This document shows positions 2,398 to 19,530 of a stretch of DNA of 64,000 nucleotides, one piece after another. The DNA is taken from contig CBDFJF010000002.1 of assembly GCA_965248265.1 (NCBI GenBank), forward strand, positions 864,001 to 928,000, read 5' to 3'. Source of the stretch: Candidatus Latescibacterota bacterium. GTDB lineage: Bacteria; Latescibacterota; UBA2968; UBA8231. The translations under genes were made by a program, and so were the position numbers. Below the pieces are notes generated by a model, which was not told the origin of the DNA, did no database searches, and was given only the letters and a program-made list of their open reading frames with translations. The stretch's first letter is position 1; every line of letters starts with the position of its first letter.

Positions 2398-3360
2398 ATG
2401 GCAAACGAAAAAGACGCACGCGCATTGATCGAAGTCGTCAAGAAGGTGCCGATTTTCAACGGCCTGTCACCAACACAGATAAAGAAAATTCTTACGGGAT
2501 GCTTACCCCGAACTTTTGCCGAGAACGAAGCCGTCAGCGCGCGCGGTAAGCCGAGCGACGAGATGCTCGTGCTGTTAGCCGGTGAGTTATCGGTAAACAA
2601 GCAGGACGGATCCGTCATCGCCGTGCTGTCACCCGTAACCACGGTCGGCGAGGTGTCGCTGATCGCACGGCTGCCCCACGAGATGAATGTCGTTGCCACG
2701 AAGTCTTCCTCCGCCCTCGTGATCACGCGGACCAAGTTCGACGTGCTGATGCGCGAGGACGTTGACATGTCTCTGAGGATCTACCGCAACATCATCACGC
2801 TGATGGCATCCCGTTTCACGGGAGAGAGCGTTAACTCCTGCGACGTCGAGATGCTGCGGACCCGCAACAAATTGCTCGAAGTCAGGCAGCGCATATCCCT
2901 CGACATGATCACAGACAGTGGTGTCTCGCGTGAGGATGCTGCCCAGCAGATCGCGCAACGGCTGCGAGGAGTCATGCCGACAATTCTTGTCGTCGATGAC
3001 CAGGAGATGATCCGAACCGCTTTCAAGCGAGCATTCAGCAATTTCAACGTGATGGTTGCCTCCGACGGTGAGGAGGCGCTCAAGCTTGCCCAGGAGTGCC
3101 GTCCCGATATCGTCATCACCGACATCCACATGGACGGCATGGACGGATATCAGCTGCTCGAGCAACTCCGAGCTGACTACCCCGATATGCCGGTACTCGG
3201 GATTTCCGGTCAGGTCGAACCCGGTCACGGAGAACGCCTGGGCTTCGATGGATTCCTGGACAAACCGGTTCGTATTGCCGACATGCTGAAAGCCGTGCGA
3301 CAAAACCTGGATACCGAGGAGTCGGAAGAAGAAACTGTGACCGAACCTGAGCCGGTGTGA
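2398..3360 (+). CDS. Cyclic-nucleotide-binding domain + response regulator receiver protein
   Basis: KKVPIFNGLS...GEVSLIARLPH cNMP fold; C-terminal ILVVDD...TDIHMDGMDG...FLDKP receiver; RBS GGGGAG. Confidence 0.85.
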   Translation: MANEKDARALIEVVKKVPIFNGLSPTQIKKILTGCLPRTFAENEAVSARGKPSDEMLVLLAGELSVNKQDGSVIAVLSPVTTVGEVSLIARLPHEMNVVATKSSSALVITRTKFDVLMREDVDMSLRIYRNIITLMASRFTGESVNSCDVEMLRTRNKLLEVRQRISLDMITDSGVSREDAAQQIAQRLRGVMPTILVVDDQEMIRTAFKRAFSNFNVMVASDGEEALKLAQECRPDIVITDIHMDGMDGYQLLEQLRADYPDMPVLGISGQVEPGHGERLGFDGFLDKPVRIADMLKAVRQNLDTEESEEETVTEPEPV

Positions 3361-4454
3361 ACATGACGAAAAAGCATCTCCTTCTCGCTTTCATGATGGC
3401 GACGGCCCCAACGACGGTCAGTTTCGCCGACGAGCGTACACGCATCTTCGTCGTCAGTAGCTACCACGCAGAGTACCTGTGGTCGCAGTCGACTCAACAA
3501 GGATTGTGCGAGGCCATGCTGCAGTTTGGCTACCTGGACAACGGCGACCAGATCGACGAGTTCACGCGGACGGATTCCGTCATGAGTTCGACAGCTGTGG
3601 TGAAGAAGGAGTGGATGGACACCAAGCGAAAGAACACGACCTCCGATATTGCCGCGGCGACCGTCCGTATCACGGCGTCGATCGATCGGTTTCGGCCGGA
3701 TGTTGTTCTTCTCGGAGACGACAACGCCGCCAACTACATCGGCAATCAGCTCCTGGACGCGGAGGTTCCGGTGGTTTTCTGGGGCATCAATGGTTTGCCG
3801 CTCAAGTACGGTCTGCTGGATCGACTGGGTCGGCCGGGTCACAACGTGACCGGTGTCTGGCAATCGGGCTATCAGAAGGAAAGCCTGGAGCTGCTCCATG
3901 AGCTCGTGCCGGAGGCGCGGACTTTTGCCATTCTGGCGTGCGATTCGGAGACCTCGAGGCCGAAAGTCAAGCAACTGCAGGTACAGGCGAGACAGGGGGT
4001 TCTGCCCCTGCAGCTTGTCGAAGTGGTCGTAACCAATTCCTATTCCGAGTTCCAGCGCCGCGCTCTTGAACTCGCCGCCCGGGTAGACGCTTTCTTCGTC
4101 CTCAATCACGACACCATGAAGGACGATCAGGGCAATCACGTCGACATGATGACGGTGGGCAAGTGGTATCTGGAACACATCGACAAGCCAGAGACTTCAC
4201 ACGAGGGCCAGTTCGTGCGTGAAGGAATGCTCTGTACGGCGAATGATTCCGGGTACAACCAGGGTTTCGAGGCTTTGACGATGGCGGCGCAGATATTGCA
4301 GGATGGTTTGGATCCCGCGACGATGAGGCCGCGGACACCTGGAAGGGGCCCCCTGATGATGAATGTTCAGCGAGCCCGGATGCTGCGGATAGGGTTCGAA
4401 GCGAAGCTCGACCAAATCGACGAACTGGCACACGAAGCCCTGGCTCTGCAATGA
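3357..4454 (+). CDS. Periplasmic ABC-substrate-binding-like sensory protein
   Basis: Signal peptide; IFVVSSYHAEYLWS, PDVVLLGDDNA, PVVFWGIN, NVTGV motifs; GTGA overlap with the previous gene; no permease nearby. Confidence 0.75.
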   Translation: MNMTKKHLLLAFMMATAPTTVSFADERTRIFVVSSYHAEYLWSQSTQQGLCEAMLQFGYLDNGDQIDEFTRTDSVMSSTAVVKKEWMDTKRKNTTSDIAAATVRITASIDRFRPDVVLLGDDNAANYIGNQLLDAEVPVVFWGINGLPLKYGLLDRLGRPGHNVTGVWQSGYQKESLELLHELVPEARTFAILACDSETSRPKVKQLQVQARQGVLPLQLVEVVVTNSYSEFQRRALELAARVDAFFVLNHDTMKDDQGNHVDMMTVGKWYLEHIDKPETSHEGQFVREGMLCTANDSGYNQGFEALTMAAQILQDGLDPATMRPRTPGRGPLMMNVQRARMLRIGFEAKLDQIDELAHEALALQ

Positions 4455-6787
4455 AGAGTCAGTCCAAGGAGAGGCCTCTTTTCTTCCGGCTTCTACTCGC
4501 ATTCCTGGGTGTCACCCTCTCCATCAGTGCCCTGCTGGTCACCGTTTCGTATGTGTTCAGCAGCCGGTCCGTCGAGGCTCACGCGCGCGAGGCCGTGGAG
4601 ATTCAGCTGGCTGCCGCCGGACGCATGTTCGAGGCAACCTACAGTGACCACCTGGCGAAGACGCTCCAGCGTCTCATCGCCTCAACCGTACTGGACGACT
4701 ACCTGCTGGGATCCGAAGCGGTGAGATTGGTCACGGCCCGGAAACTGGAGAGACTGTTCAAGCAGTCCGCTCGCGAGCTCGAGGCCATCGAAAGCATCTA
4801 TTTCGTCGACTCGCAGGGAAGGGAACGCGTCGGTATCAGCGGCCAACGCAGGGCCGTGGATCTGGTCGATCTTGGGCGATTGTTGCAGAACTCCGGATCG
4901 CCTGCCAGCGAGTCCAACGTGCACAGTGCGGCGGCTGGCCGCGTCTGCGCCGCACTCGCATCGTTGTCGCCAGGCAGCATCTACGTCGACGGGCCGTACC
5001 TCGACGCCCTTGGGAAGGTTTCAATGTTGGTGGGGATCTCCAAGCTCGATCTAGATACGGGAGGGTTCGGCGGCAGCGTTCTCATACGCCTGATTCTCGA
5101 CCCGTTTTTTGACGACCTGGCCGAGCTGAAACTGCTCGGGGTTGCCAGTCCGATCTGGATCGTCTCAGCGACGGGGCATGTACTGCGCGCGCCAGTCAAC
5201 CAGGATGTCACGTTCCATCCCGAGCCCGCTCTGATACGCCAACTGGCATCAGAGCAGGCCGCCGACAAAGAGGTTAGCCTTATCAGTCTGAAGCAGGGGC
5301 TGATGGCGGTCCGTGAGTTGTCCGTCGTCTCCGGAACGACGCAGCTTCGATTAGTGGCCTGCCTGGCGGACGAGCTGCTGCTCAACGAAGTCGAGCCCGT
5401 GCTGCGGTTTTTCTCCATCGTTCTCTCCGTTTCCATCGTCCTGATCATCGTGGTGGCTGGGTGGATGGCACGGGTGTTGTCGTCGCCGATTCGCCGGCTT
5501 GCCGACGCAGCACTCGAGCTCGCCCAGGGTGACCTGTCAACGCGCGTCGAGGTGGAATCGGCAAGCAGTGAAGTCAGGCTTCTCGTGGACAGCTTCAACA
5601 CGATGGCAGAAGCGCGATATCGAGCGGAAGCACTGCTGCGAGTAAGCGAAGAGCGCTTTCGGTCTCTGGTGGAACAGGCCGCGGACGCGATGTTCGTCGT
5701 GGATAGAAGCAACGGCCGCTTCCTTGAGGTGAATCAACAGGCCTGCGTCAGTCTCGGATACAGCCGCGAGGAGCTTCTCGGTCTGCGTGTGCCCGAAATC
5801 CAGAGCAATCACAGTTGGGAAGAATTGGCGAAGAAATTTCAAGGATTGCTCCCAGGCGAGTCGGTCACCATCGAAGGCAACCATCGACGAAAAGACGGCG
5901 CGAAGTTTCCCGTAGAGGTCCGCGTAGGACTGTTCGAGTCAGGTGACCAGCCGTTGCTGGTTGCCCTGGCTCGGGACATTTCCGAACGACGCCGGAACGA
6001 GCAAGCGCGACAGGATGCCGAGGAAGCCCTGGAGCGCCAGCGCACATTAGGCATGCGAGCGGACCGGCTGCGGTCTCTCGGGGAGATGGCGGCCGGCATC
6101 GCCCACGAGCTCAATCAGCCGTTGGTGGGAGTGCGCGGTATAGCGGAGCACCTGCAGATCGCGCTGCAGAAAGGTTGGGATCTGAGCGACGACATGCTGT
6201 TGGAAAAAACGGGCAACATCGTCGCCCAGGCCGATCGCATGACGCACATCATCGAGCATGTGAGGATGTTCGCGCGAGAATCCGGCAAACCGGATCTTTC
6301 GCAGCTGCAGGTCAACGAAGTGGTGTCCGCCGGCATCGAGTTGCTGGGGGCGCAGCTAAGCACGCACGGGATCGAACTGGACGCCGACCTGGCCGAGGAG
6401 TTGCCCCCAGTAGCAGCTAATCCGTACTCGCTCGAGGAGGTTCTCATCAACCTGCTGACCAACGCGCGCGATGCGATCGATGAGCGACGCCAGATTCAGC
6501 CCTCGTTCTACGGCCGTATCACCGTGCGCACGCTGGCCAGGTCCAACGGCGGTGCTCACGATCTGGTCTGTATCGAGGTCGGCGACAACGGACCCGGGAT
6601 ACCGGAGGCTGTACTTCCCAAAATTTTCGATCCGTTTTTCACCACCAAAGATCCCAACAAGGGTACCGGACTTGGACTCGCCATATGTAAATCGATTATC
6701 GAACAATTCGCCGGTCACGTGTCGATCGAATCTACACACGATTCGGGCACGATGGCGACGGTGGCCCTGCCTGTCAGCATGCCGTAA
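4451..6787 (+). CDS. Membrane sensor histidine kinase (periplasmic Cache-like, HAMP, PAS, HisKA, HATPase)
   Basis: Two TM helices; HAMP ([17 protein letters not shown]); PAS; [10 protein letters not shown]; NLLTNA, DNGPG, FFTTK, GTGLGL. Confidence 0.93.
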
Positions 6788-6955
6788 ACGGATCCTTGCC
6801 CGAGAGCCCGGCAGAAGCTACTTTCCTCGCATTGACCCACGGCAACAACCTCTCCCTGAAATTGCTTCCCAGATCTTCCTCCCCGGGAGGATCACGACCT
6901 CCTGTCGTCCGCACCGATCCTGATTAATCGACAGCCGGGCAACCTCTGCCTGGCC

Positions 6956-8857
6956 GTGCTGCTGTGTATGGGTGCCACGGCTGCCTCCGGGCTCGCGTCG
7001 TACACCGATCCACCCGGTTATCCCAGCGCCTGGTCGTCCGCGCTGGGATCGCAAAGCTATACCTTCCAGGGCAGCTCACAGAGCGATCCCAGCGGTGCGG
7101 TGGACGCTTCCGGCGCTGATGTGCCACTTGCCCACGTTGATTTTTCCGCCGGGCCTTCTCAGGATCAGTCTTCCTTCTTCCACACGGCCACCAGTTCGGT
7201 TCTGTTTTTCCGGTTGCGTCTCGCCGGCTCGCCACTGCAGCTGGTGGCCCCTGGGCTTCCGGCAAAAGCGGCGACCTGGAACATCCTCATCGATATCGAT
7301 GGCGACGGTTACAAGGAATTCGCCGTCACCCTGGACGGTGCCGGTGGCAGCGCTGGGCCGGATGACCTAATCGTATGGTTCGGTGATACGGCATCGCAGA
7401 CGTTTTCTACCGGCCAGGAGGTGTGGCGCCAGGACAGTGCCGGTACCGACGATGATGCCGATGGGGCTGAGGGTGGCATACCGCTCTGGGACATCGATGC
7501 TGATCCCTACGTGTGGGATTTTCGCCGCGTCCGAGTCGTCCAGATCGACATGTCCTTGCCCCCGGGAGATGAGGCTTCTGAGTATTTCCTGGATGTACAG
7601 ATCCCGCTAACGGCCTTCGATGCGTCGACCGCAGGCGGAACCGCGCTGTCGTCGTCGACGGCAATCTCCATGACGGCGACCACCGGCTCGAGCTTCACGA
7701 ACCCGCTGCAGCACGATCTGTTGTTCGCGGGTGAGTTTGCCTTGGCCGATGTGCCGTTGCCGATGGGGGACCCGACCGCAGGCAGTAGCGTTTTTCAGGA
7801 GCCAATCGTGACAGCGGTGACGGCCACGGCGTGTCCGGCGCCGCTGTTTCTGAGTGCTACCGTTTTCGACGCGATCGGACCGGGGGGCGGGAGCGTTGCA
7901 ACCACCGTGGCGGCAGTGCAGTTCGAGTCCTACGCGGACTTGAATGCGGATGGGCAGGCGAAGGACGCGGACGGGGAATGGACTCTGATCGGCGGCGCTC
8001 AACAGGGCTCGGGTGGTTTGAGCCAGTGGGGAGGGAGCTGGAACGTCGACCTGTTGCCGAACGGCAATTATCTCGTGCGAGCGTTGGCCACTGATGCGCA
8101 GGGCAACGAGATGGTTTCAACCGAGCAACCGGCGCAATTGCAACAGGTGTCCGTGGTTGCCGGGGTGACCAACGAATGCAGCATCATCCTTTCGTTCGCC
8201 GGTTCAACCCAGTCGGTCATCGACCTCAACGGTGACCCGGTGGCGCCCGGAGACACCCTCGTCTACAACATCACGCTCAAGAACAGTGGTATCGAGGTGC
8301 CCAACGCGACGGTCCGCGATACGCTCGATGTCCAACTGGAGTACGTCGCAGGTTCAGCGGTCCCTGAACCGGCGCAATCCGGTGCGCAGCTGCTGTGGAA
8401 CGTGGGCACGGCCGCTGCCGGCGCTGAGCAAGCGTTTACCTTCGCTGCCCGAGTTCGCGAATCGACCGTCAACCAGACCACGATCGAGAGTCGTGGTTGG
8501 ATCACGACGGGAACGATAGCGGAGTTGGTGACGGCAATTGTGAGCGTGGTTTCCCTGCCGCGGATACAGTTATCGACGACCGTCGACGGCGACACCGGGC
8601 TTCCGGGAGATACCCTGGCCTACCGGGTCATGTACGCGAATGTCGGTACCGACGCGGCGACGGCCGTGCTGATTTCGGATGAGGCGCCGCCGACGGTTTC
8701 GTACGTCAGCAACAGCGTCACCGTAAACGGATTACCCAAAACCGACGCGTCTGATGGCGACAACGTCGAGGTCGCCGAGGACCTCATCTCCGTCGAGATC
8801 GATACCGTGGCCGTCGGGGAAACGGGAGAAATACGTTTCCTGGTTCGCATTGAATAG
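6956..8857 (+). CDS. Secreted DUF11-domain protein (putative tip subunit); true start may be upstream (in-frame CTG at 6902)
   Basis: Signal-like N-terminus; unique acidic beta-rich N-domain; Ig domain (LPNGNYLVRALATD); two DUF11-like domains (PGDTLVYNITLKN, PGDTLAYRVMYANVG). Confidence 0.78.
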   Translation: MLLCMGATAASGLASYTDPPGYPSAWSSALGSQSYTFQGSSQSDPSGAVDASGADVPLAHVDFSAGPSQDQSSFFHTATSSVLFFRLRLAGSPLQLVAPGLPAKAATWNILIDIDGDGYKEFAVTLDGAGGSAGPDDLIVWFGDTASQTFSTGQEVWRQDSAGTDDDADGAEGGIPLWDIDADPYVWDFRRVRVVQIDMSLPPGDEASEYFLDVQIPLTAFDASTAGGTALSSSTAISMTATTGSSFTNPLQHDLLFAGEFALADVPLPMGDPTAGSSVFQEPIVTAVTATACPAPLFLSATVFDAIGPGGGSVATTVAAVQFESYADLNADGQAKDADGEWTLIGGAQQGSGGLSQWGGSWNVDLLPNGNYLVRALATDAQGNEMVSTEQPAQLQQVSVVAGVTNECSIILSFAGSTQSVIDLNGDPVAPGDTLVYNITLKNSGIEVPNATVRDTLDVQLEYVAGSAVPEPAQSGAQLLWNVGTAAAGAEQAFTFAARVRESTVNQTTIESRGWITTGTIAELVTAIVSVVSLPRIQLSTTVDGDTGLPGDTLAYRVMYANVGTDAATAVLISDEAPPTVSYVSNSVTVNGLPKTDASDGDNVEVAEDLISVEIDTVAVGETGEIRFLVRIE

Positions 8858-8895
8858 TTGCATGAGTAAGTGACAGGAGGAGGTTGGAGATCAAC

Positions 8896-9441
8896 ATGAT
8901 ACGCATCAGGAGGACCTTGGTAACCGCTTGTATGATCGCATCGAGTGCTCAGGCTCAGGCGCCCGTTGACGAAGCGGCCGTGCCCACCGGGCCGCGGATC
9001 GAGATCGTCATCATGGACGATCTGTTGCTGCCATCGGGCGGAACCGGGACCGTGACCAGAGACGGCGCCGGCAATCTCGTAACTCGCCCCGGAGATGTCA
9101 TTCGCTATCGACTGACCGCTTCGAATCGCGGTAGTGAACCGGCACGCAATACCGAACTCCTCGACCCCATTCCCGCCGGGACGGAGTACGTCATCGGCAG
9201 CGCACGTGGGGACGGTATGCGACTGCTCTTCAGTATCGATGGGGGGCGAACATTCAAACCGCAGCCCGTGCGCTATGAAGTCCGGTCGGCGCAGGGGGAG
9301 GTAGTTGAGGTCGCGGCAGAGCCAACGATGTACACCCACGTGAAATGGTCGGATCTGGCTCCGATCTCCCCCGGTGATGCAGTCGAGGCGAGCTTCCAGG
9401 TGCGCGTTTCGCAGCGACAAGATGCTGAGCAGGCGAAATGA
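8896..9441 (+). CDS. Small secreted single-DUF11 protein
   Basis: GGAG RBS, signal peptide ending AQAQA, PGDVIRYRLTASNRG...LLDPIPAGTEYV, insertion FSIDGGRTF...YTHVKW. Confidence 0.82.
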   Translation: MIRIRRTLVTACMIASSAQAQAPVDEAAVPTGPRIEIVIMDDLLLPSGGTGTVTRDGAGNLVTRPGDVIRYRLTASNRGSEPARNTELLDPIPAGTEYVIGSARGDGMRLLFSIDGGRTFKPQPVRYEVRSAQGEVVEVAAEPTMYTHVKWSDLAPISPGDAVEASFQVRVSQRQDAEQAK

Positions 9442-11231
9442 TGATGACGGACATGATGATGAAAGGATGGACTCAGATGTCGACCCGACGATTGAACTGC
9501 CCCTCCCCTTTCACTCTAGGGGCGATGGGCGGTTTCGTGCTGGCGTGCACTCTCCTGTGCGGCGTTGTCCCTGCGGCAGCGGCCGGGACCCCGGCGGGCA
9601 CCATCATCCGCAATATCGCCATCGCAAACTACGAGGATACCAGTGGCAATCCGCTGCCTCCGGTGGAGTCGAACGAGGTGACGACGATCGTGGCGCAGGT
9701 TGCCGGCGTCGACGTTTCACCCGAAACCTCATTGCACAATGTCATCGCCGGGTCTGCTACCGTGTTCCTGGTGCAGGTTACCAACGTGGGCAATGGCGCG
9801 GACTCATTCCCGTTGACCTTGAGCGGCATCCCGGGTGGTTGGGGGGCGACCATCTACAATGACGTGAACGGCGATGGTGTTCTGGACGCGAGCGAAGAAA
9901 CCACCGAGAACGAGGTCGTGACGCTTTCATTGAACGCCGACGAAATGGCGTCCATCCTGATGAAAGTCGACGCGCCCATCGCGGCCGAGAGTGGTGAGGC
10001 CGTGACGATGACGCTGTCTGCAACATCTGACTTCGACGTCAGCATACAGGATACCGGGACCTACACGGCGAACGTAACGGCGGCGGCAGTCTCTGCATTT
10101 AAGTCAGCCACGCCAAACAATCCGAAGACCGGCGACGTCGTGACTTATACGATCACAGGAGTGAACGAGGGCACGAGTACGGCATTTGCCGTCGCCTATT
10201 CAGATCCATTGCCGACTGGCGTCACCTATGTTCCGGGTTCGATGCGTTTCGGACTCGAGGGGATTACCTATGACAGCGCCACGCCATTGAGCGACGGCGT
10301 CGACGCCGACATCGGTGATTTCAGTGGTTCCGCCGCGAACACGGTGACCTTTCTATGGGGTGATTCGCCTGGACAGCAGGTCGCCGTCCTGTTCTTCCGG
10401 GTCACCGTCATCGCGGAGCTATCCGCCGGCACCGTCGTCAGCAACACCGCCATCGTCAACTACGAAAGCCCACAGGGGATCCAGGCACCGGCCGTCGACA
10501 GCACGCCTGGTCTGTTCACAGTCGCGCCCACACCACTGCCGATCCTGTCGATCACCTCTACAGCCGGTGCCGCTGAAGCAGGTTCGTCGTTGCCTTATCC
10601 CGCCTCCGTGTCCAACGGCGGCAACGCTACTGACATATTCGATATAACGTCGTCTTCGACGGCCGGTCTGTTGTTACAGGTCTGGGTGGACGTCAACGGT
10701 GACGGTATCGCCGGAACAGCCGGTGATTTCGAGCTTACCGACACCGATGCCGACGGAGATCCGGACCTGGGCAGCATCGTCCCCGGCGCCACGGTGGAGT
10801 TGGTGTTCGTCGTAGAAGTCCCCGCTGGCGTCAGCGATGGCACCATCGACGTAACGACCATCATGGTGACGTCGTCGAATGATCCTGCCGTATCGGCTAC
10901 CGGGACGCTGACGACGACCGTCAGGGCGCCAATCGTCGCCGTGAGCAAGTCAGTCGATCCAGCGGGTACTCAGCCACCGGGTCAGGTACTGACCTATACC
11001 GCCATCGTCGCCAACGGCGGTCAGGGCAGTGCCACCAATGTGCTGTTCAGTGACGCGATTCCAACCAGCACGACCTATGTGCCCAACAGCACACTCGTCG
11101 ACGGCGTGCCCAAAACGGACATCGAGGACGGCGACAACGTCGAGTTTTCCAACCGCACCATCATCGTCGATCTGGGTACAATCGGGCCAGAGGGCAGCCA
11201 CACGATCCGCTTCAGCGTGACCATAGACTAG
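9438..11231 (+). CDS. Secreted DUF11 repeat protein (putative major fibre subunit)
   Basis: Signal peptide then GTPAGTIIRNIAIANY; TNVGNGADSF and SNGGNATDIF domains; DUF11 domains FKSATP..SDPLP..SNTA and VSKSVDP..SDAIP; DxNGDG Ca-binding loops. Confidence 0.85.
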   Translation: MMMTDMMMKGWTQMSTRRLNCPSPFTLGAMGGFVLACTLLCGVVPAAAAGTPAGTIIRNIAIANYEDTSGNPLPPVESNEVTTIVAQVAGVDVSPETSLHNVIAGSATVFLVQVTNVGNGADSFPLTLSGIPGGWGATIYNDVNGDGVLDASEETTENEVVTLSLNADEMASILMKVDAPIAAESGEAVTMTLSATSDFDVSIQDTGTYTANVTAAAVSAFKSATPNNPKTGDVVTYTITGVNEGTSTAFAVAYSDPLPTGVTYVPGSMRFGLEGITYDSATPLSDGVDADIGDFSGSAANTVTFLWGDSPGQQVAVLFFRVTVIAELSAGTVVSNTAIVNYESPQGIQAPAVDSTPGLFTVAPTPLPILSITSTAGAAEAGSSLPYPASVSNGGNATDIFDITSSSTAGLLLQVWVDVNGDGIAGTAGDFELTDTDADGDPDLGSIVPGATVELVFVVEVPAGVSDGTIDVTTIMVTSSNDPAVSATGTLTTTVRAPIVAVSKSVDPAGTQPPGQVLTYTAIVANGGQGSATNVLFSDAIPTSTTYVPNSTLVDGVPKTDIEDGDNVEFSNRTIIVDLGTIGPEGSHTIRFSVTID

Positions 11232-11281
11232 CGCCGCGACGGCGAGGAGAGAGCATGTTCGTCGCGCAAGGAGTGGGTTGA

Positions 11282-14200
11282 TTGACGATGCGGTTGAGCG
11301 CGCTAGCACTCAGCATCGTCGTCCTGGGATTGCTGGTCAGTGCAGGGGGAGCGCGGACGCCGGTCGGCACCGTCATCTCCAATCAGGCCACTGTTTCCTT
11401 TACTGACCACGGCGGACAGTCGCTCGTCAGCCACAGCGACATCGCCCGCCTGACCGTGGCCGCCGGCGTCCGCCTCGCCGTCACCGTCGACGCCCTTCCC
11501 AATCCCGTGGCGCCTGGCGACAGCCTCACGGTCGACGTCATCATAGAAAATCCAGGCAACACCGCGGCACAGGAAGTCCTCCTGACCATGGTGACGGACG
11601 TTGTCGGCTCGGTGGCCGCATTCGCCGACAGTGCTGCCATTGTTGAAGGACGGCAGATTTCCTGGCCGGCGGTGGAGATCACACCGGGTTCTCGCGTGCT
11701 GCGGCGATTTCGCGTCCACATCGATTCAACGGCTCAACACGGATCGGACTTCGGACTTGAGGCGACGGTGATCGCGGCCAATGTCGACGAACCACTGCTG
11801 CTCACCAGGCGGGTCAATATCGACTTCGCGCCCCGCCTCGTCCTCACGAAAGACGCTGATCGGGACAGCGTCACTGCCGGGGGGGTGGTTGAGTACTCCG
11901 TCCATTGCGTCAACACGGGCAATGCGACGGCGCGCGGAGTGAGGGTGCGCGATGATGTGGCGAGTGCGCTGACTCCATCATCCTCCTCACGGCCGTTCAC
12001 GAAAGCGGGATCGGTGCTGACCTGGGACGTCGGTGACCTGGAGGCCGGCGCGGTCGTTTCTTTCCAACTGCTCGTTCGCGTCAGTGACGGGGTAGTCACC
12101 GGCAGCAGCCTGCTCAACCAGGTAAGCGCGACGGCGATGGCCACCGGGCCGGATGGTGCCCCGCGATCGTTCGTCTCAGAGTCCCCCACCGTCACCGTGA
12201 CGGTGATCGATCCCGCCTTGAGTCTGGCCAAGATGGTTCAGTCAGAGTTGCCAGTTCCGGGGCGGGGTGATGTGATTGCGTATCGGCTGGAGTTGACGAA
12301 TGCCGCCGCCATTGCCGCCGGCTCCGTGGTGTTACGCGATACCCTGCCTGAACCCTTGCGGTTTGTATCGGCTGAGGCGGAGGTGCCAGTGTCGGTGAGG
12401 GAGCAGATCGTCGAGGCGACGTGGCCCGAGGTCGTTGCCGGCTCAACAGTCTTCCTGAGCATCCTGGCTCGGGTGGACTCCGTGGATACGCTGCCAGAGC
12501 TCATCACGAATCGGGCCTGGGCAGAGTCTTCCATTTCGGTGATTCCATCCAACGCCGTTGAGACGACGCTGCGCCTGGACGAGCCGACGGACGGCGAGTT
12601 GGAGCAACCCAGCAGAATCTTTGCCGGCGCGGACCTGACAATTGAGGTGCGCGACGCCGATGCCAACCACCATCCGACGGTAATCGACACCGTCACGGTC
12701 GGTGTCACCAATCAACGCAGCGGTGAGGTGGAGACACTGCTGCTACCGGAAACGGGCGTCGACACCGGTGTGTTCACGGGTGCAGTTGGAACCGCGCACA
12801 GCCAGGAACGGGGGGAGGATAACGATGGCCATCTGTTCGCTGTGCCAGCCGATCAGCTGGTCAGTACCTATTCAGACCTGCTAACGGCAACGGGCGAACC
12901 CGCGCAACGGTTGGCTCAGACCGAGGTGGCTTTGACATCGATCGCCTTGCGCGTTTATCCAGATGCCATCGTCGCCAACGGGACCGAGCGTGCCATTTTC
13001 ACAGCTACGCTGACCGATGACGAAGGCCTGCCGCTACCCGATGGCACGCCAGTGGTATGGCGGACGGATGCGGGAGTCTTCACGGAGGTGTCTGTCGACG
13101 ACGACGGACAGGCGATGACGAAGACGGTCGGGGGTGGTGGCGAAGCCAGGGTGGCGTTGACGGGGCCGCAGCTGACCCGGCGTGACACACTCATCGTCAT
13201 TGCCTCTCTAGCAGGTTTTGATTCGAATCCACTCGCACTGCAACTGCTGCCCGGCGCCATTGGTGTTCGTGTCTTCGACGATGAGCGCGGCATCGAGGTG
13301 ACGGCGGCCGATCCGGACCTGGAGGTGACGGTACGGGTTTCGGGAAGCACTTCAGCGGGGGCATCACTGTCGGAGGATATCGATCTGGACGACAATGGGG
13401 TCTTCGTCGTCGATCAGCTCCCACCGGGTGACTACTCTCTGGACGTCACGGTCGAAGACGCTGCCACGGGCAGGTTGGTTTTCGCCGGCTTGCTGCAACA
13501 GATCAGCGTCAACGACGACGGCACGGCCACCCCTCCAAAGAACAGCGTCAGCGGCAGCCTCCGTGGCCGTTCCGAATCCTCCGGAGGGCGCTATGCCGGT
13601 AGCATCGTCGAATTGCTGGACAGAGCCACAGGGGCCGTCGTCGACGAGGGTGTCGCGGATACCGATGGTGGCTATCAGTTCCACAACCTGAATCCGGGTG
13701 CCTACGATCTGCGTGTTGTCTTCGATGACGGGACCGTGGTCACGCGTCCAGTGCCCGAGCCGAGTGAGGTCATCGGAACGGCGCTCGTCAACACCGATAT
13801 CCTCATCGATCCGTTCGGTATCGTCTTCGACGCCAGCAGCGGGGAGGCTGTCCCCGGGGTGGAAGTCAGTCTGCGGATGGCCGATGACACGGTTGTGCCG
13901 CTTCCGGGTCTCAACGGAACGGGGGCCGTACCCAACGATGACAACGTCAACCCGTTTACGACAGGAGTTGACGGACGCTACGCCTTCCTGTTCGGCGGTA
14001 ACCAGGTAGGCGCCTTCGGCCGGCCACAGATGTACACCATGGCAGTCAATCCCGATGAGGGGTCTTCATTCTTGCCAAGACGGCTGCTGCTGAGTGTACA
14101 GCCGAGTCGAGCCGGACCGGTCGAATCGACGCCGATCACGATGCGGGTGAGTGCTGCCGATGGCTTGCCGTTGGCAGTTCCAAACTCCTTCGCCCTGACC

Positions 14201-16453
14201 ACGGATGATGTCGTACTCGCCGACATCGAAACCATCGCCCTGCACCTGCCGCTGTTCGCCCGCGCTGCAGTACTCGAATTCGCCAAGATCGCCCTCAGCG
14301 ACACCGTGGCACCCGGAGAATCAGTCGATTTCGGACTTGCCATCGCCAATACCGGCAATGACACCGCTCGCGCCGTACTACTGACCGACTCGCTGGGCGT
14401 CGGCTGGGAGATCGAATGGACAGACCGCGGGACCCTGGCGGCGACGGACGTCGTGCGCTGGGAACTGGGTGATATCGCACCGGGAAGGCGCGATACCCTC
14501 GGGCTGCGCGCCCGCGTCATCGCACCTCAGGCACACGGGACGGTCCTGACCAACCGTGCTCATCTGAGCGTCACGGAGGGCTTCCCGTTGCGTGCTGAGA
14601 CCGCGGTCGTCGTGCACAGTACACCCCTTTGGATACTCTCCAAACAGGCCCTGGCCGACAGTGTTACCTCCAGCCAGGACGTGGAGTACCTGCTTGAGTA
14701 CAGAAACGACGGCACGGGTGTGGCCCGCGGTGGTAGCCTCGTCGACACGCTCGCAGCCGGACTCAGTGTGGTGGCCGCAGAGGGAGCCCAGATAGACGGC
14801 AATGTCGTGCGTTGGTCGCTTGAAGATGTAGCCGTGGGCGCCACCGGCAGCCGGCGGTTGGTGGCGCGAGTCGACGCTGACTTGGTCCCGGGTAGCCTGG
14901 TTTCCAACAGAGCAGTCGTGCTCGCCCCTGATGGATCTGTCGCCGCCGCCGATTCGGCCAGCGTTATCACGCGCGCGCCGCGGATGAATCTGGTCAAGCG
15001 CGCCCTGGTCGATACTGTCACCCAGGGGGACCGGGCAACCTTCACGATCACCGTCACCAACGAGGGTGAAACGCCGGTCACTTCCGTGACGCTGGTGGAT
15101 TCACTGCCTCTTGAGTTGAGCATCGTCGACGCAGCCGATGCCGTCGTCCCGGATGCAGTCGCCGTCGAGCCGGGAGCCGTTACCTGGCAGCTTGACTCTC
15201 TGGCCGCGGGGGCAGCCGACACTTTCAGGGTAACGGTTGAAACGGAAGAAGCGGCGCTAGTCACGAACCAAGCGCGGCTGTTGATCGCATCGCAAACGAT
15301 CGCCACGGCGACGGCCACGATTGCCGTGCGTGAGCGTCCTCCGCTCGAAGTCGGTCTGGTCGCAGACGCCCCCACGCTGGAGGCGGGGGCAGTCATCACG
15401 TACACGGCACACCTGCGGGCGCCGTCATCGATCGCGGGTCAGGTCGTCGTCACCGACAGTCTGCCCGCAGCCCTCGTGTATCAAACCAGTCTGGATGGCC
15501 CGCAGCCTGAGTACGATTCCGACAGCAACGTGCTGACGTGGACGATCGCTGACCTGGGCCCAGAGGGTCCGCTGACGCTGATCTTCACGGCCGCGGTCTC
15601 GGAAGGTCTACCGCCCGGAGAATCGGTGGTGCAAAACCGGGTGGTCGCACAGCTGGGCGCTCAGCAGTTCGTTTCGGAGCGCGTCGAGACGCTGGTTACC
15701 GTGCCGTTTTTGAGGATCGAGAAGTCAGCTGATGTGACCGTCGTCGAGGTCGGTGACTTCGTCGAGTACCGCATTCAGTTACAGAACACGAGCGCGGGAA
15801 CGGACACGCTGCGCAACATCCTCATAAACGATTGGACACCGCCCGGTTTCCGCTATGCGGAAAGCACGGCCGTACTAGACGGAGTACCGCAGCAGCCGAG
15901 TCAACCCGGCTCAGGATTACTCCTGTGGTCCGTGCCGCCACTGGCGGGCAACGACGTTTCAGAGCTGATCTACCGACTGGTAGTCGGGCTCGATGCACCA
16001 TTTGGCGATGGCGACAACACGGTACGGGTCACGGCGCAGACGGCTCGCGGGGCCGATCAGGACGCTGGTCCCGTGTCGGCTCGGGTACGGGTACGCCCGG
16101 ATCTGTTCTCGCGCGGAGAGCTCATTCTGGGACGCGCCTGGATCGACGCCGATGGGGACGGTCTTTTCGACTACGACGAGGAGGTGGTCCCCGGCATCGC
16201 CCTGCTCATGGAAGATGGCACGCGCATCATCGCTGACCGCCACGGCAAGTTTTCGGTCCCCGAAGTCAGACCTGGAGATCACGTGCTGCGTGTACTCAAG
16301 CACAATCTCACCGGTCTGGAACCGACAGCCCTCGGCAGCAGGTCCGCCGGAGATCCCTGGTCGCGCTTCGTGACCGTACCGGTAGCCGGGTCTGCGAAGG
16401 CGAATTTCCCGTTCCGCCGACCAGATGAGAGTCAAACGGTGCAGGAGCCATGA
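11282..16453 (+). CDS. Large secreted multi-DUF11/Ig protein with Big_1-like, carboxypeptidase-regulatory-like and C-terminal SdrD-B-like domains
   Basis: 1723 aa; N-terminal TPVGTVISNQATVSF; about 8 DUF11-like repeats; IVANGTERAIFTATLTD (Big_1-like); GRAWIDADGDG...MEDGTRIIAD..GKFS. Confidence 0.85.
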   Translation: MTMRLSALALSIVVLGLLVSAGGARTPVGTVISNQATVSFTDHGGQSLVSHSDIARLTVAAGVRLAVTVDALPNPVAPGDSLTVDVIIENPGNTAAQEVLLTMVTDVVGSVAAFADSAAIVEGRQISWPAVEITPGSRVLRRFRVHIDSTAQHGSDFGLEATVIAANVDEPLLLTRRVNIDFAPRLVLTKDADRDSVTAGGVVEYSVHCVNTGNATARGVRVRDDVASALTPSSSSRPFTKAGSVLTWDVGDLEAGAVVSFQLLVRVSDGVVTGSSLLNQVSATAMATGPDGAPRSFVSESPTVTVTVIDPALSLAKMVQSELPVPGRGDVIAYRLELTNAAAIAAGSVVLRDTLPEPLRFVSAEAEVPVSVREQIVEATWPEVVAGSTVFLSILARVDSVDTLPELITNRAWAESSISVIPSNAVETTLRLDEPTDGELEQPSRIFAGADLTIEVRDADANHHPTVIDTVTVGVTNQRSGEVETLLLPETGVDTGVFTGAVGTAHSQERGEDNDGHLFAVPADQLVSTYSDLLTATGEPAQRLAQTEVALTSIALRVYPDAIVANGTERAIFTATLTDDEGLPLPDGTPVVWRTDAGVFTEVSVDDDGQAMTKTVGGGGEARVALTGPQLTRRDTLIVIASLAGFDSNPLALQLLPGAIGVRVFDDERGIEVTAADPDLEVTVRVSGSTSAGASLSEDIDLDDNGVFVVDQLPPGDYSLDVTVEDAATGRLVFAGLLQQISVNDDGTATPPKNSVSGSLRGRSESSGGRYAGSIVELLDRATGAVVDEGVADTDGGYQFHNLNPGAYDLRVVFDDGTVVTRPVPEPSEVIGTALVNTDILIDPFGIVFDASSGEAVPGVEVSLRMADDTVVPLPGLNGTGAVPNDDNVNPFTTGVDGRYAFLFGGNQVGAFGRPQMYTMAVNPDEGSSFLPRRLLLSVQPSRAGPVESTPITMRVSAADGLPLAVPNSFALTTDDVVLADIETIALHLPLFARAAVLEFAKIALSDTVAPGESVDFGLAIANTGNDTARAVLLTDSLGVGWEIEWTDRGTLAATDVVRWELGDIAPGRRDTLGLRARVIAPQAHGTVLTNRAHLSVTEGFPLRAETAVVVHSTPLWILSKQALADSVTSSQDVEYLLEYRNDGTGVARGGSLVDTLAAGLSVVAAEGAQIDGNVVRWSLEDVAVGATGSRRLVARVDADLVPGSLVSNRAVVLAPDGSVAAADSASVITRAPRMNLVKRALVDTVTQGDRATFTITVTNEGETPVTSVTLVDSLPLELSIVDAADAVVPDAVAVEPGAVTWQLDSLAAGAADTFRVTVETEEAALVTNQARLLIASQTIATATATIAVRERPPLEVGLVADAPTLEAGAVITYTAHLRAPSSIAGQVVVTDSLPAALVYQTSLDGPQPEYDSDSNVLTWTIADLGPEGPLTLIFTAAVSEGLPPGESVVQNRVVAQLGAQQFVSERVETLVTVPFLRIEKSADVTVVEVGDFVEYRIQLQNTSAGTDTLRNILINDWTPPGFRYAESTAVLDGVPQQPSQPGSGLLLWSVPPLAGNDVSELIYRLVVGLDAPFGDGDNTVRVTAQTARGADQDAGPVSARVRVRPDLFSRGELILGRAWIDADGDGLFDYDEEVVPGIALLMEDGTRIIADRHGKFSVPEVRPGDHVLRVLKHNLTGLEPTALGSRSAGDPWSRFVTVPVAGSAKANFPFRRPDESQTVQEP

Positions 16454-19400
16454 GGTTTATCGTCCTTGTCGGCTGCTGCATCGTCCTCGTTGTGGCCGAT
16501 GCCCTGGACGCCGTCGAAATCCAAACGCCGGCTGACAGCAGCGTCACCTACAGGGACCGGATAGCCGTTATCGCACTCGGATTGCCTGGAGTTCCCGCGA
16601 CGCTGGATGTCAATGGCGATCCCGTCGAGACCCTGGTCGTGCGCGCCGACGCGCGAGTTGACTTTCTGAATGTGGCTCTGCCCTCGGGGCCTGTCCTGTT
16701 GAGTGTGCGACAACGTATGCCGAACGGTGAGCGCAAGGCAGACAGTACTCGCATTCATGTTGTCGGCACGGCCAGTGAAGTCCTGATCGAGTTGGAGCAC
16801 ACGACGCTACCTGCTGACAGTTTGTCCCGGAGCCGCGTCGATGTCAGGGTTGTGGACGATTGGGGTATGACGCTCCCGGATGGTCAGCTCATCAATGTGA
16901 GTCTGGATCGCGGCCAAGTGCTGGCGGAAGATCTCTATGCGGCCGAACCCGGTGTACAGGTGCAGGTGCGGGATGGCCGGGCCTCGTTTGACATCATTTC
17001 GGCTGCTTCCGTGGGGGAGGGCCTGCTGCGGCTCAGCGCGGACGGGGCGCAATCAGTCCAATGGATCGGCTACACGCAACCCGTTGAGGATTGGACCGTG
17101 GTTGGGCTGGCTACTGCTCAGCTGGGTTGGCGCTCGGACAAACCGGCACCGCAAGGGATCGCGCCGCCGGCTGCCTTCAAGGGTGGCGCCTACGCCGACG
17201 GAAAAACGGCGGTGTATGCACGGGGCACGGTGGCTGACGACTACCTGCTTGTGACTTCCTACGATTTTGAACGCGACTACGACGATCGCGTCTTCCGCTT
17301 TCTCACCCCGGAACGGGTGTATCCCATCTATGGCGATGCCAGTTCCATCTTTTACGAAGCGCCATCGGCGAGTCCGTTCTACGCCAAACTATCGCGGGGA
17401 CGGGATCATCTGATGTACGGCGACTTTGCAACGCGGATGGGCGCAGACTCGGAAGTGGCTGCATACAACCGCTCCTTAACCGGAGTGTCGACGCGATTGG
17501 AAACCGAACGGGGGATGAAGGTGAAGGTCTTCGGGGCGTCCACGGATCAGTCCATACAGGTAGACGAGGTGCGGGGGGAAGGAGTCTCGGGGTACTACTA
17601 CCTGTCAGCCGCCGGCCGCGGCGTACCGATCGTCGAAGGCAGTGAACGCGTCGTCATTCAGGTGCGCGATCGCCTCCATCCCGAACTCGTCCTCAAGGAG
17701 GATGTCCGATATCGTTTTACTGACTACGAAATCGACTACGAGGCGGGCACGCTATTGTTCAAGCGACCGGTGCCCAGTGTCAGTCCCGAAGAGCACCCCG
17801 TCTTCATCGTGACGACGTACGAGGCCACCCGCTCGATCGAACAGCGCTGGACCGGAGGCGGCCATGTCGAGGTACCGATTCGGGAGCGCTGGCAACTCGG
17901 TGCCACGGCCGTGGGTGAAGAGGGGGAGGCGCGAGAGAACTATTGGCTCACAGCCGTCGACGGTCGCTTTGTGCCCACGGATGACGTCAGTGCACGGCTG
18001 GAGGTGGCGCGCTCGATGGCGGAGGCGGACGGCTGGGCATGGAAGGCGGCTGTGCGTGGTCGACTGACGGGGGAGCACCTGAGTTACGATCTTCAGGTAC
18101 GGGATGCGGGTCGCAACTTCGACAATCCCAGCAGCCCAACGGTACGGGCAGGAGTGCGCAAGGTGCGGGGTCGCGCGGTGTGGTCGCCCGCAAGTGGCAC
18201 CGAAGTGACGGCAGAATCACATAGCCTCAGCGACCGTGTCAATGATGAGGAGCGTTCCAGTGTCGCCCTGGCCACGCGCTGGTGCTGGCGGGCCCTGGAC
18301 AATCGGCTAGGCGTCGATCGTACTCGCAGCGACAGACGGAGTCAGTCCTTTCACAGTCGTACGGTCAGCGCCGCGACTTCGTGGGCGGCGTTGCCGCGGT
18401 GGACTCTCGGGGCGCAACGCGATCAGACCTTCGGTGATCAGGACCTCAGCTACCGGCCCACGCTCACGACCCTGCGCAGTCGATGGAAGCTCAACGAGCG
18501 CAGCGACCTGATCGTCGAACACGCCTTTCGTGATGGCAGTCCAATCGATTCCAGCTTCACGGCGGCGGCGCTGCAATCGAAGGTCGGCGACGATGCGACC
18601 GCCTACGCCAACTACCAGATCGACGGCGGCATTGCCGGCAGGCAGAACCAAGCTATCGTTGGTCTGCGCCATTCTTACCATCCGCGATCTCACCTGAGTG
18701 TGCACACGGCATTCGAGCGCACGTGGACGCTGCGTCAGAACGACGCCTCCAACTTCTACGCCTACAGCCTGGCAGCCGAATTTCTGCCGCCGAGAGATTT
18801 CAAGACGAGTGCTCGCTTCGAACAGCGCCGCGGCAGATCGCTGGACAAGACCGTTATCTCCGGGGCACTCGACCTGGCTGTGGGTGGAGACCTGTTCGTG
18901 TTGACGAAACAGGTCTATACGGATGAGGAGCGGGCACAGAGCAGCGGACCCAGCGGAGCGAAGGCGGGGATTCGAGCGTACCGAATCGCGAACGGGCTCG
19001 CCTATCGTCCCAGTCGTCACGATCACCTGAATGGGCTGGCTCGCTACGAACGGCGCTACGAACGCAACACCCTGGTCACGCCCGCGCATCGACGTTGGAC
19101 CGACATCGGCTCATTCGAGTTCATCTTCGAACCGAAGTCGCAGATCGAATGGTTCGCCCGCTATGCCTTCAAGATTGCTGACTTGACGACACGCGGGTTG
19201 TCAACGGAGACGCTGACGGATCTGTGGATGACGAACCTGCGCCTGGAGTGGGGGGCAAAGGCGCGCTGGGATGTGCTGGGGGAATACCGTCTGCTCACGC
19301 AGCATTACGCCGGAGAGCGCATCCACGGGGCGTCAGCGGAATGCGGCTGGATCTTCACCGGCAACGCTCGGGTGGCCGGCGGCTACAACTTTGCCGGTTT

Positions 19401-19530
19401 TCACGACGGTGATCTGGCCGGGCTTTCGTATTGGGCTCGCGGACCCTATCTCAAGATCCAGAGCAAGTTCTCGGAGGCCGCTGTTGCTCCATGGCTGGAG
19501 GGCATGCAGAGCGCGTGGGACAGCTGGTAG
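16450..19530 (+). CDS. Large outer-membrane beta-barrel protein with N-terminal Ig domains (putative secretion/assembly platform)
   Basis: Signal peptide; LPADSLSRSRVDVRV Ig domain; YPIYGDAS and YGDF motifs; long run of alternating amphipathic strands ending GPYLKIQSKF; ATGA overlap with the upstream gene. Confidence 0.78.
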   Translation: MRFIVLVGCCIVLVVADALDAVEIQTPADSSVTYRDRIAVIALGLPGVPATLDVNGDPVETLVVRADARVDFLNVALPSGPVLLSVRQRMPNGERKADSTRIHVVGTASEVLIELEHTTLPADSLSRSRVDVRVVDDWGMTLPDGQLINVSLDRGQVLAEDLYAAEPGVQVQVRDGRASFDIISAASVGEGLLRLSADGAQSVQWIGYTQPVEDWTVVGLATAQLGWRSDKPAPQGIAPPAAFKGGAYADGKTAVYARGTVADDYLLVTSYDFERDYDDRVFRFLTPERVYPIYGDASSIFYEAPSASPFYAKLSRGRDHLMYGDFATRMGADSEVAAYNRSLTGVSTRLETERGMKVKVFGASTDQSIQVDEVRGEGVSGYYYLSAAGRGVPIVEGSERVVIQVRDRLHPELVLKEDVRYRFTDYEIDYEAGTLLFKRPVPSVSPEEHPVFIVTTYEATRSIEQRWTGGGHVEVPIRERWQLGATAVGEEGEARENYWLTAVDGRFVPTDDVSARLEVARSMAEADGWAWKAAVRGRLTGEHLSYDLQVRDAGRNFDNPSSPTVRAGVRKVRGRAVWSPASGTEVTAESHSLSDRVNDEERSSVALATRWCWRALDNRLGVDRTRSDRRSQSFHSRTVSAATSWAALPRWTLGAQRDQTFGDQDLSYRPTLTTLRSRWKLNERSDLIVEHAFRDGSPIDSSFTAAALQSKVGDDATAYANYQIDGGIAGRQNQAIVGLRHSYHPRSHLSVHTAFERTWTLRQNDASNFYAYSLAAEFLPPRDFKTSARFEQRRGRSLDKTVISGALDLAVGGDLFVLTKQVYTDEERAQSSGPSGAKAGIRAYRIANGLAYRPSRHDHLNGLARYERRYERNTLVTPAHRRWTDIGSFEFIFEPKSQIEWFARYAFKIADLTTRGLSTETLTDLWMTNLRLEWGAKARWDVLGEYRLLTQHYAGERIHGASAECGWIFTGNARVAGGYNFAGFHDGDLAGLSYWARGPYLKIQSKFSEAAVAPWLEGMQSAWDSW

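Follow-up and report, generated by a model that had tools for sequence, protein, structure and literature searches.

The window analysed here is a stretch of 64,000 nucleotides (nt) from a Candidatus Latescibacterota bacterium (assembly GCA_965248265.1, contig CBDFJF010000002.1, positions 864,001 to 928,000). On its + strand, between 6902/6956 and 19530, lie five co-directional genes, numbered 1 to 5 below, with gaps that are short or replaced by overlaps (Table 1). Genes 1 to 4 are members of the DUF11 family, renamed CLIPPER in the excerpted text of PMC12617251. Each matches PF01345 (DUF11) or TIGR01451 above the curated cut-off: TIGR01451 is found in all four (2.1e-11 for gene 2), and PF01345 scores 55 bits in gene 1 (DUF11 match E 1.2e-14), 24.9 bits in gene 2 (cut-off 24.6), 53.5 bits in gene 3 and 249.9 bits in gene 4 (E 4.1e-75 over 7 stretches). 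For gene 5, neither Pfam nor NCBIfam gives a match. We propose that the products of these five genes are the parts of a diderm surface fibre, assembled by completing a split CLIPPER domain between chains, and give this reading a probability of about 0.6.

The split is best seen in gene 3, where a signal peptide is followed by a donor hairpin and four immunoglobulin (Ig)-like domains, the last of which is incomplete. A complete domain inside the protein reads ...FKSATP...SDPLP...FFRVTV and continues with AGTVVSNTAIVNYE...STPGLFTV. The C-terminus reads VSKSV...SDAIP...IRFSVTID and then meets the stop codon, so that gene 3 ends after the very strand that AGTVVSNTAIVNYE follows in its own internal domain. 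At the other end, past the signal peptide, gene 3 carries TPAGTIIRNIAIANYE at 9588-9635, and its mature N-terminus, GTPAGTIIRNIAIANYEDTSGNPLPPVESNEVTTIV, is a copy of the two strands missing from the last domain. An earlier note on this DNA, made from the letters alone, had seen both the absence and the free N-terminal copy; the motifs it quoted for the proteins starting at 9438 and 11282 (genes 3 and 4) are all present in the translations where it had placed them. It had taken the missing piece for a single strand, which does not hold: two strands are missing, and they form a hairpin of about 35-40 residues (GT.I.N.A...Y.D....SN.VTT.V), joined to domain 1 without a linker, as neighbouring domains of a tandem array are.

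These ends are exact and conserved. In an alignment of 58 gene 3 homologues of similar length, the C-terminal end falls in the identical column in 57, none extends beyond it, and P0020 stops earlier. The hairpin is the best-conserved region of the protein, with a mean entropy of 1.16 bits against 1.60-1.98 for the four domains. Ends of this kind rule out a chance partial repeat. Hidden Markov models (HMMs) of donor and acceptor were also run over the 7.3-Mb genome, on all 19,849 of its six-frame open reading frames (ORFs) of 100 aa or more. Only gene 3 (aa 50-89, and again internally at 330-355) and gene 4 (aa 26-50) were matched by the donor model. Acceptor matches reaching the end of the model abut the stop, 0 residues away, in gene 3 and gene 1, and are internal only in the complete domain of gene 3. 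The resemblance is not due to chance.

The residues of an isopeptide bond are divided between the two ends of gene 3. The excerpts of PMC12617251 describe the CLIPPER structure PDB 9IFR as a CnaA-like Ig domain with an intrachain isopeptide bond between Lys715 and Asn806, catalysed by Asp748. The Lys and Asp motifs of the family profile align to 9IFR, and the same triad, with Lys in the first strand and Asn in the penultimate one, is also found in the internal domain of gene 3. At the split domain, Asn59 stands in the hairpin and Lys504 and Asp539 in the acceptor (Asn10, Lys455 and Asp490 in mature numbering). Among the 58 homologues, Asn is kept in 55, Lys in 56 and Asp in 57. Homologue P0019 has lost all three (it reads H, R, G), as expected if the three residues work together. 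From these sequences we infer that the chains polymerise and that a covalent bond forms at the joint.

The other genes carry the two parts unevenly. Gene 1 begins with a region without known family, continues with DUF11 domains and ends in an incomplete acceptor domain; the donor HMM finds no match in it. Gene 2 is a signal peptide followed by one DUF11-like domain that ends soon after the F.VRV strand, again with no donor hairpin. Gene 4 has a signal peptide and a donor hairpin, carrying TPVGTVISNQATVSF at 11357-11401, then many complete DUF11, Big_1 and SdrD_B-like domains (TIGR04226, an isopeptide-forming fimbrial domain, scores 54.8 bits), and no incomplete C-terminal domain. The earlier note had read genes 1 and 4 in the same way, and had likewise found gene 2 to be without a donor. 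This division, with genes 1 and 2 acceptor-only, gene 3 carrying both parts and gene 4 donor-only, is found in four genomes (that of the window and those of three relatives from its phylum, G035, G033 and G094). Orphan donors and orphan acceptors can be satisfied only by pairing between chains.

Table 1. Positions of the five genes and of their main features in the window
Feature	Position	Strand	Details
Gene 1, tip candidate	6902..8857	+	633 aa counted from GTG 6956 (first canonical start)
Gene 1 acceptor domain	8561..8854	+	aa 536-633, ends ...IRFLVRIE + stop; acceptor HMM independent E-value (iE) 1.1e-20, 0 residues to end
Gene 2	8884..9441	+	185 aa; ATG 8896 is the start suggested by homologues
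Gene 3, shaft candidate	9438..11231	+	597 aa; start Met14 at 9477 suggested by homologues
Gene 3 donor hairpin	9585..9704	+	aa 50-89, GTPAGTIIRNIAIANYEDTSGNPLPPVESNEVTTIV...; Asn59 codon 9612-9614
Gene 3 acceptor domain (incomplete CLIPPER)	10929..11228	+	aa 498-597; acceptor HMM iE 5.4e-38, 0 residues to end
Gene 3 acceptor residues	Lys504 10947-10949; Asp539 11052-11054	+	isopeptide Lys, catalytic Asp
Gene 4, anchor/stalk candidate	11282..16453	+	1723 aa
Gene 4 donor hairpin	11357-11461	+	aa 26-60; donor HMM iE 9.3e-06 at aa 26-50
Gene 5, barrel	16450..19530	+	1026 aa; ATGA overlap with gene 4
Gene 5 Ig-like domains (two)	16516-17079	+	aa 23-210, after signal peptide
Gene 5 barrel region, about 40 long beta strands	17095-19473	+	aa 216-1008, AlphaFold2 model
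Gene 5 conserved low-confidence loop	17266-17376	+	aa 273-309; YPIYGD motif (alignment A3)

The joint was also modelled. Following a suggestion of the earlier note, gene 3 was paired with itself in trans, as its acceptor end (domains 3-4) and its donor end (hairpin to domain 1), both chains with alignments. The interaction prediction score from aligned errors (ipSAE) was 0.71, 0.71 and 0.69, whereas the best of 3 controls reached 0.00; the mark that the trans model passes is reached by 58 of 80 solved complexes and by 2 of 110 mismatched pairs. Contacts agree 100% between runs, and the partner chain has a predicted local distance difference test (pLDDT) value of 91. Donor residues 1-39 lie against acceptor residues 451-457, 460-475, 481-496 and 530-548 (mature numbering), that is, against the strands carrying Lys455 and Asp490. 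A Foldseek search with the whole gene 3 model returned generic multi-Ig proteins only.

The hairpin of gene 3 might instead complete the C-terminal domain of its own chain, so that the monomer closes into a loop. The conserved triad and its co-loss are equally compatible with pairing within or between chains, and the AlphaFold2 monomer does build strands within residues 7-35. In that monomer, however, the hairpin has a pLDDT of 51-62, the rest being near 90 (mean 87.8, predicted template modelling score (pTM) 0.61), which is to be compared with the 91 of the partner chain in trans. In four genomes, moreover, gene 4 has a donor and no acceptor, and genes 1 and 2 have acceptors and no donor; the linker-less junction of the hairpin with domain 1 is that of a tandem array. 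We consider such a closed monomer very unlikely.

The survey of gene neighbourhoods, also suggested in the earlier note, found the same parts list across phyla. With a seven-sequence barrel alignment as query and one genome per species, 79 barrel loci with 2245 ORFs were collected. They come from Gemmatimonadota (the closest relatives), Latescibacterota, Bacteroidota, Chitinophagaceae, Ignavibacteriota, Chlorobiaceae, Fidelibacterota and Neomarinimicrobiota, and from Smithella, Syntrophobacterales, Desulfatibacillum alkenivorans DSM 16219, Geobacter, Geomonas, Lentisphaerae and a Halieaceae metagenome-assembled genome (MAG). An N-terminal donor is present in 62 ORFs and a terminal acceptor in 96; 38 ORFs of 547-667 aa, in 36 of the 79 loci, have both and are thus of the shaft type. 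All 120 donor or acceptor ORFs share the strand of the barrel. Where at least 8 kb was available upstream of the barrel gene (38 loci), a shaft-type ORF was found in 28 and a terminal-acceptor ORF in 37. Acceptor matches reaching the model end number 140, of which 96 lie 0-3 aa from the stop and a single one at 4-25 aa, the other 43 being internal complete domains. A Fidelibacterota MAG and Smithella also have the order tip, small acceptor protein, shaft, anchor, barrel, whereas D. alkenivorans has its tip-like gene downstream. Within the phylum of the window the distribution is patchy: of 168 genomes, 7 have gene 3 and 32 have the barrel.

These counts bear on the plainest explanation, namely that the genes encode ordinary, independent fibrillar adhesins, the partial terminal repeats being functionless ragged ends of arrays and the barrel an unrelated neighbour. 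DUF11 proteins are indeed common stalk-forming adhesins, according to the excerpts of PMC12617251. Ragged ends would nevertheless not be expected to fall within 3 aa of the stop in 96 cases against 1, nor the hairpin to be the best-conserved segment, and an unrelated neighbour is hard to reconcile with a gene order kept across phyla and with the presence of a terminal-acceptor ORF at 37 of those 38 barrel loci. This explanation appears exceedingly unlikely.

The link between donor and barrel is also seen within single proteins. The gene 5 module was found in 2815 cluster representatives at E<=1e-3 and in 1176 at 1e-30, mostly as the last ~1000 residues of proteins of 1900-2700 aa. Among the best 150 of these gene 5-module proteins, the donor motif occurs in the first 90 residues of 67 of the 86 long Met-starting ones, and in 1 of 30 short barrel-only ones. 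Anchor and barrel are fused in 16 of the 79 loci; G035 and G094 are such cases, the counterpart of gene 4 and the gene 5 module forming one chain there. In the fused relative P0123, an OmpA peptidoglycan-binding domain stands between stalk and barrel module. A second class of donor-bearing proteins, of ~900 aa (P0061-P0120), closes with a domain similar to gene 2's, which stops after an F.VRI strand; among the matches listed, 60 of 60 start with a donor, 59 of them in this class. It may be another class of shaft. The source names in this class are Krumholzibacteria and Latescibacteria.

It could be argued that gene 3 serves as a single adaptor or short oligomer, ligating an exchangeable tip to a barrel-anchored stalk, so that the product would be a modular adhesin and not a long pilus. 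The anchor alone already provides 1723 aa of stalk, related genomes have a single-chain giant version beside the same barrel, and the acceptor-only tips range from 421 to 3081 aa. On the other hand, gene 3 has both donor and acceptor, so that nothing in its sequence bars self-addition, and the self-complementary class is conserved (the 38 ORFs in 36 loci, plus the ~900-aa class). We regard limited ligation as improbable, and retain assembly into a polymer as the preferred reading.

The AlphaFold2 model of gene 5 (pLDDT 82.4, pTM 0.69) is that of a very large outer-membrane barrel, into which a small beta domain is inserted at aa 376-449, and which has a terminal helix. Foldseek retrieved SprA, SlpA, LptD, MtrB and TonB-dependent receptors, with low TM-scores. 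Secretion of the autotransporter, inverse autotransporter or intimin type, which relies on 12- or 16-strand barrel domains of known families, was rejected: no such family is matched in gene 4, gene 5, P0123, P0133, P0150 or P0176, and a barrel of ~800 aa is far too large. The absence of a PapD/PapC pair and of a sortase, both announced in the earlier note, was borne out. The PapD-like chaperone family PF00345 and the usher family PF00577 are found neither in the operon nor in the 92%-complete genome, while the control search recovered PF00577 in E. coli; sortase PF04203 is likewise absent from this genome. Nor do the proteins carry a C-terminal LPXTG sorting signal, their C-termini reading ...VRIE, ...AEQAK, ...VTID and ...TVQEP. 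The most conserved stretch of gene 5 (YPIYGD.S, with invariant G295 and D296) has a model pLDDT below 50. The loop at 273-309 may be a lumen loop or a latch.

Taken together, these parts suggest the following scheme. The hairpin of one gene 3 subunit would enter the incomplete domain of the next, and insertion would rebuild a normal domain at each joint, giving a continuous beads-on-a-string rod. The rebuilt Lys-Asp-Asn triad would then form an autocatalytic isopeptide bond that locks the joint, a sortase being uninvolved. Gene 1, an acceptor only, would be the distal tip; gene 4, a donor only, which is fused to the barrel in some relatives, would terminate the chain and tether the fibre to the cell. 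The barrel of gene 5 would anchor the fibre and probably let it pass through. Folding upon insertion and the irreversible bond would provide the driving force in a compartment devoid of ATP. Two orders of assembly can be envisaged. The fibre may grow at its base through the barrel, tip first, until the donor of the anchor is captured, as chaperone-usher pili do; alternatively, it may grow distally on an exposed anchor, ended by acceptor-only caps.

Gene 2 would have a separate role in this scheme. An Arg occupies its Lys-equivalent spot, as judged by the equal spacing from the PGD motif (alignment A4, 25 homologues), and of the 16 acceptor-only ORFs in the survey that measure 301-450 aa, 10 have Asn in place of the Asp and only 3 have the Lys. 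Because of this Arg at the would-be Lys position, our guess is that gene 2 could be a non-crosslinking acceptor, binding donor hairpins reversibly without crosslink, either as a donor-capping periplasmic chaperone against premature polymerisation or as a removable cap.

Several observations weigh against the scheme. The two pieces used in trans are halves of one known fold, so that the good score may reflect their likeness to intact domains, and their having been cut out leaves room for the hairpin to fold back on its own chain; the Asn-Lys pair is, moreover, absent from the 25 lowest-error contacts of the trans model. Gene 2 matches the acceptor HMM over model positions 15-60 only, and its truncation, also claimed in the earlier note, is therefore called from the position of the protein end and not from a full-length match. 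The donors of shaft and anchor are about as similar within a locus (identity 0.444, n=11) as between loci (0.434, n=110), which gives no sign of locus-specific co-evolution. As to the barrel, VIA-align placed the usher FimD on top, at Z 17.1 (root-mean-square deviation (rmsd) 14.0, 362 aligned), with porins at Z 15.6, and the FimD translocation domain at Z 14.5 (rmsd 5.7, 312 aligned). The usher fold is a 24-strand barrel with a plug, and the gene 5 model has about 40 strands. With no sequence match and porins scoring near FimD, usher likeness does not discriminate and gene 5 cannot be called usher-like; of the usher-like barrel first proposed, the large barrel remains, supported by model and fold matches.

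The remaining difficulties concern the bond. At the isopeptide-Lys position (7) of its acceptor, gene 1 has Thr in the window, against Lys in 3 of 3 relatives, with Asp present at position 42. By this chemistry the tip joint could thus be only non-covalent here: the tip, shaft and base roles put forward in the earlier note agree with the conserved division of donors and acceptors, and the covalent linkage it proposed would not extend to the tip of this window. In the anchor of one relative, Ser replaces the Asn, and a clean N/K/D triad is found in only 27 of the 38 shaft-type ORFs of the survey, five of the others reading N/-/N. Strand insertion alone might therefore hold the fibre or complex together, as it does chaperone-usher pili, the Lys, Asp and Asn merely stabilising the fold; the Thr of the tip, the 11 shaft-type ORFs without a clean triad, and DUF11 domains that lack the bond (excerpts of PMC12617251) would all fit. 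Such non-covalent joints are in our view unlikely, given the retention of Asn, Lys and Asp in nearly all 58 shaft homologues and their joint loss in one, and given that the identical triad forms the bond in the solved CLIPPER domain. A covalently locked shaft thus remains the reading that we prefer.

Known systems offer partial precedents. Gram-negative donor-strand pili are non-covalent and need the PapD/PapC pair; the known covalent pili are Gram-positive, sortase-made structures. The cluster resembles chaperone-usher pili (type 1 and P pili: FimA/PapA, FimH/PapG, FimI/PapH, FimD/PapC, FimC/PapD) in its donor-less tip, in a terminator that has a donor and no usable acceptor, in an incomplete subunit fold made whole by the next subunit's N-terminal extension (analogous, in a different fold), and in a dedicated large outer-membrane barrel in the same operon, with no need for an ATP source. 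It differs from them in lacking any match to the PapD-like chaperone or usher families in cluster and genome, and in that a CnaA-like CLIPPER domain is short of two strands, whereas there a pilin fold is short of one. An isopeptide triad stands at the joint, the helper candidate, gene 2, resembles the acceptor and not a strand donor, and the anchor is a 1723-aa stalk that is barrel-fused in some genomes.

With sortase-assembled Gram-positive pili the cluster shares the idea of a covalent fibre of CnaA/CnaB-type Ig domains with tip, shaft and base subunits; the link would here be autocatalytic and inside a rebuilt domain, in a genome without sortase and in proteins without sorting signal. SpyTag/SpyCatcher, SnoopTag and isopeptag are engineered split isopeptide domains, made by cutting intact domains. 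In them too, a peptide with a reactive residue docks into the remaining domain and a spontaneous isopeptide bond forms; those are laboratory constructs, whereas here the split would be natural and serve head-to-tail polymerisation. The type V pili of Bacteroidia (FimA/Mfa1) are built from lipoprotein precursors activated by proteolysis. As far as the consulted excerpts go, they are a diderm strand-exchange polymer that comprises tip and anchor subunits and lacks any member of the usher family. The cluster proteins match no FimA-type family, and type V pili were rejected as an identity for the cluster.

The domain family itself is that of the CLIPPER/DUF11 adhesins, such as Acinetobacter silvestris B9T28_05395 (9IFR; PMC12617251, in excerpt), which are Gram-negative stalk proteins and have the same Lys-Asp-Asn triad as the cluster; among the relatives here, the fused P0123 contains an OmpA-like domain. 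In the excerpts of that paper the domain is whole and its bond intrachain, whereas here the domain is split between the termini of two chains. A further precedent, in mechanism, is the archaeal thread of Sulfolobus acidocaldarius (Saci_0406), for which the excerpted PMC9715654 reports N-terminal donor-strand complementation together with a proposed intersubunit covalent bond involving Asn, which would link the alpha-amino group of Asp24 to Asn57 across subunits n and n+2. Compared by mechanism only, both have an N-terminal donor strand, a proposed Asn-involving intersubunit bond and no sortase. The thread is archaeal, without outer membrane or barrel, its subunit has no Pfam domain, and its bond is not that of a Lys-Asn-Asp triad within one rebuilt domain. 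The excerpts returned by full-text literature searches held no account of a split CLIPPER domain, of a covalent donor-strand diderm pilus or of this barrel family, nor of the operon; among the findings were intrachain CLIPPER bonds, single-chain DUF11 grappling hooks, archaeal threads, and strand exchange of the TasA type or in type V pili.

The principles involved are known; as far as the searches went, the combination and the machinery are new. If the scheme is true, strand complementation and a self-forming isopeptide bond would be brought together by unrelated machinery, as a new assembly route for bacterial surface fibres. A function would also be gained for large unexplained DUF11 proteins in many environmental phyla and for an unannotated barrel family, and protein engineering would have natural, mutually similar tag-and-catcher pairs at its disposal. 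Cultured carriers exist, namely D. alkenivorans DSM 16219 and Geomonas species. More tentatively, and at slightly less than even odds, the clusters could represent an unrecognised, widespread class of diderm pilus, defined by enzyme-free, split-isopeptide, head-to-tail polymerisation, by assembly and anchoring at a giant barrel, and by a triad-dead, inverted chaperone that caps hairpins. This same tentative reading would cover Gemmatimonadota, Latescibacterota, Bacteroidota, Ignavibacteriota, Chlorobiaceae, Fidelibacterota, Neomarinimicrobiota, Desulfobacterota including Geomonas, and Lentisphaerota.

Signal-peptide-like N-termini are found on all five proteins, in gene 1 only with a start upstream of GTG 6956. 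The frame of gene 1 is open from ~6857, and CTG 6902, the start chosen in the earlier note, lies 9 nt after GGAGGA; translation from this CTG gives a signal-peptide-like N-terminus, and translation from the GTG gives none. That no canonical start yields a signal peptide suggests a start other than ATG, GTG or TTG, or a sequence error. In the ESM Atlas the N-terminal region of gene 1 obtained scores of at most 0.89, the sole named family being Glucodextran_C at 0.85, which is a lead only. Immediately upstream on the + strand, two genes encode a secreted protein of 365 aa (3357-4454) and a membrane sensor histidine kinase of 778 aa (4451-6787); the two overlap by 4 nt and end 115-170 nt ahead of gene 1. 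They may be regulators of the cluster. A scan of promoters and terminators gave counts close to those of shuffled sequence.

Three kinds of atypical loci were noted among relatives. At L034 (G112:C22), L033 and L035, whose contigs are partly N, one giant chain of at least 2167 aa precedes the barrel and replaces separate tip, shaft and anchor; the N-terminus of the giant chain matches the N-terminal region of gene 1 weakly (26% identity, E 7e-4). At L018 (G033:C18, 6848-14587) anchor and barrel are read as ORFs of 1894 aa and 659 aa, with one in-frame TAG in a 2592-aa frame; a sequencing error, a pseudogene or read-through are possible. Finally, in one genus of the same class, 17 of 21 genomes (G072-G092) have ~1000-aa proteins that match the barrel profile at 314-560 only. 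These proteins, which match the region of the inserted domain, seem to form a remote branch of the barrel family that lacks the DUF11 partners.

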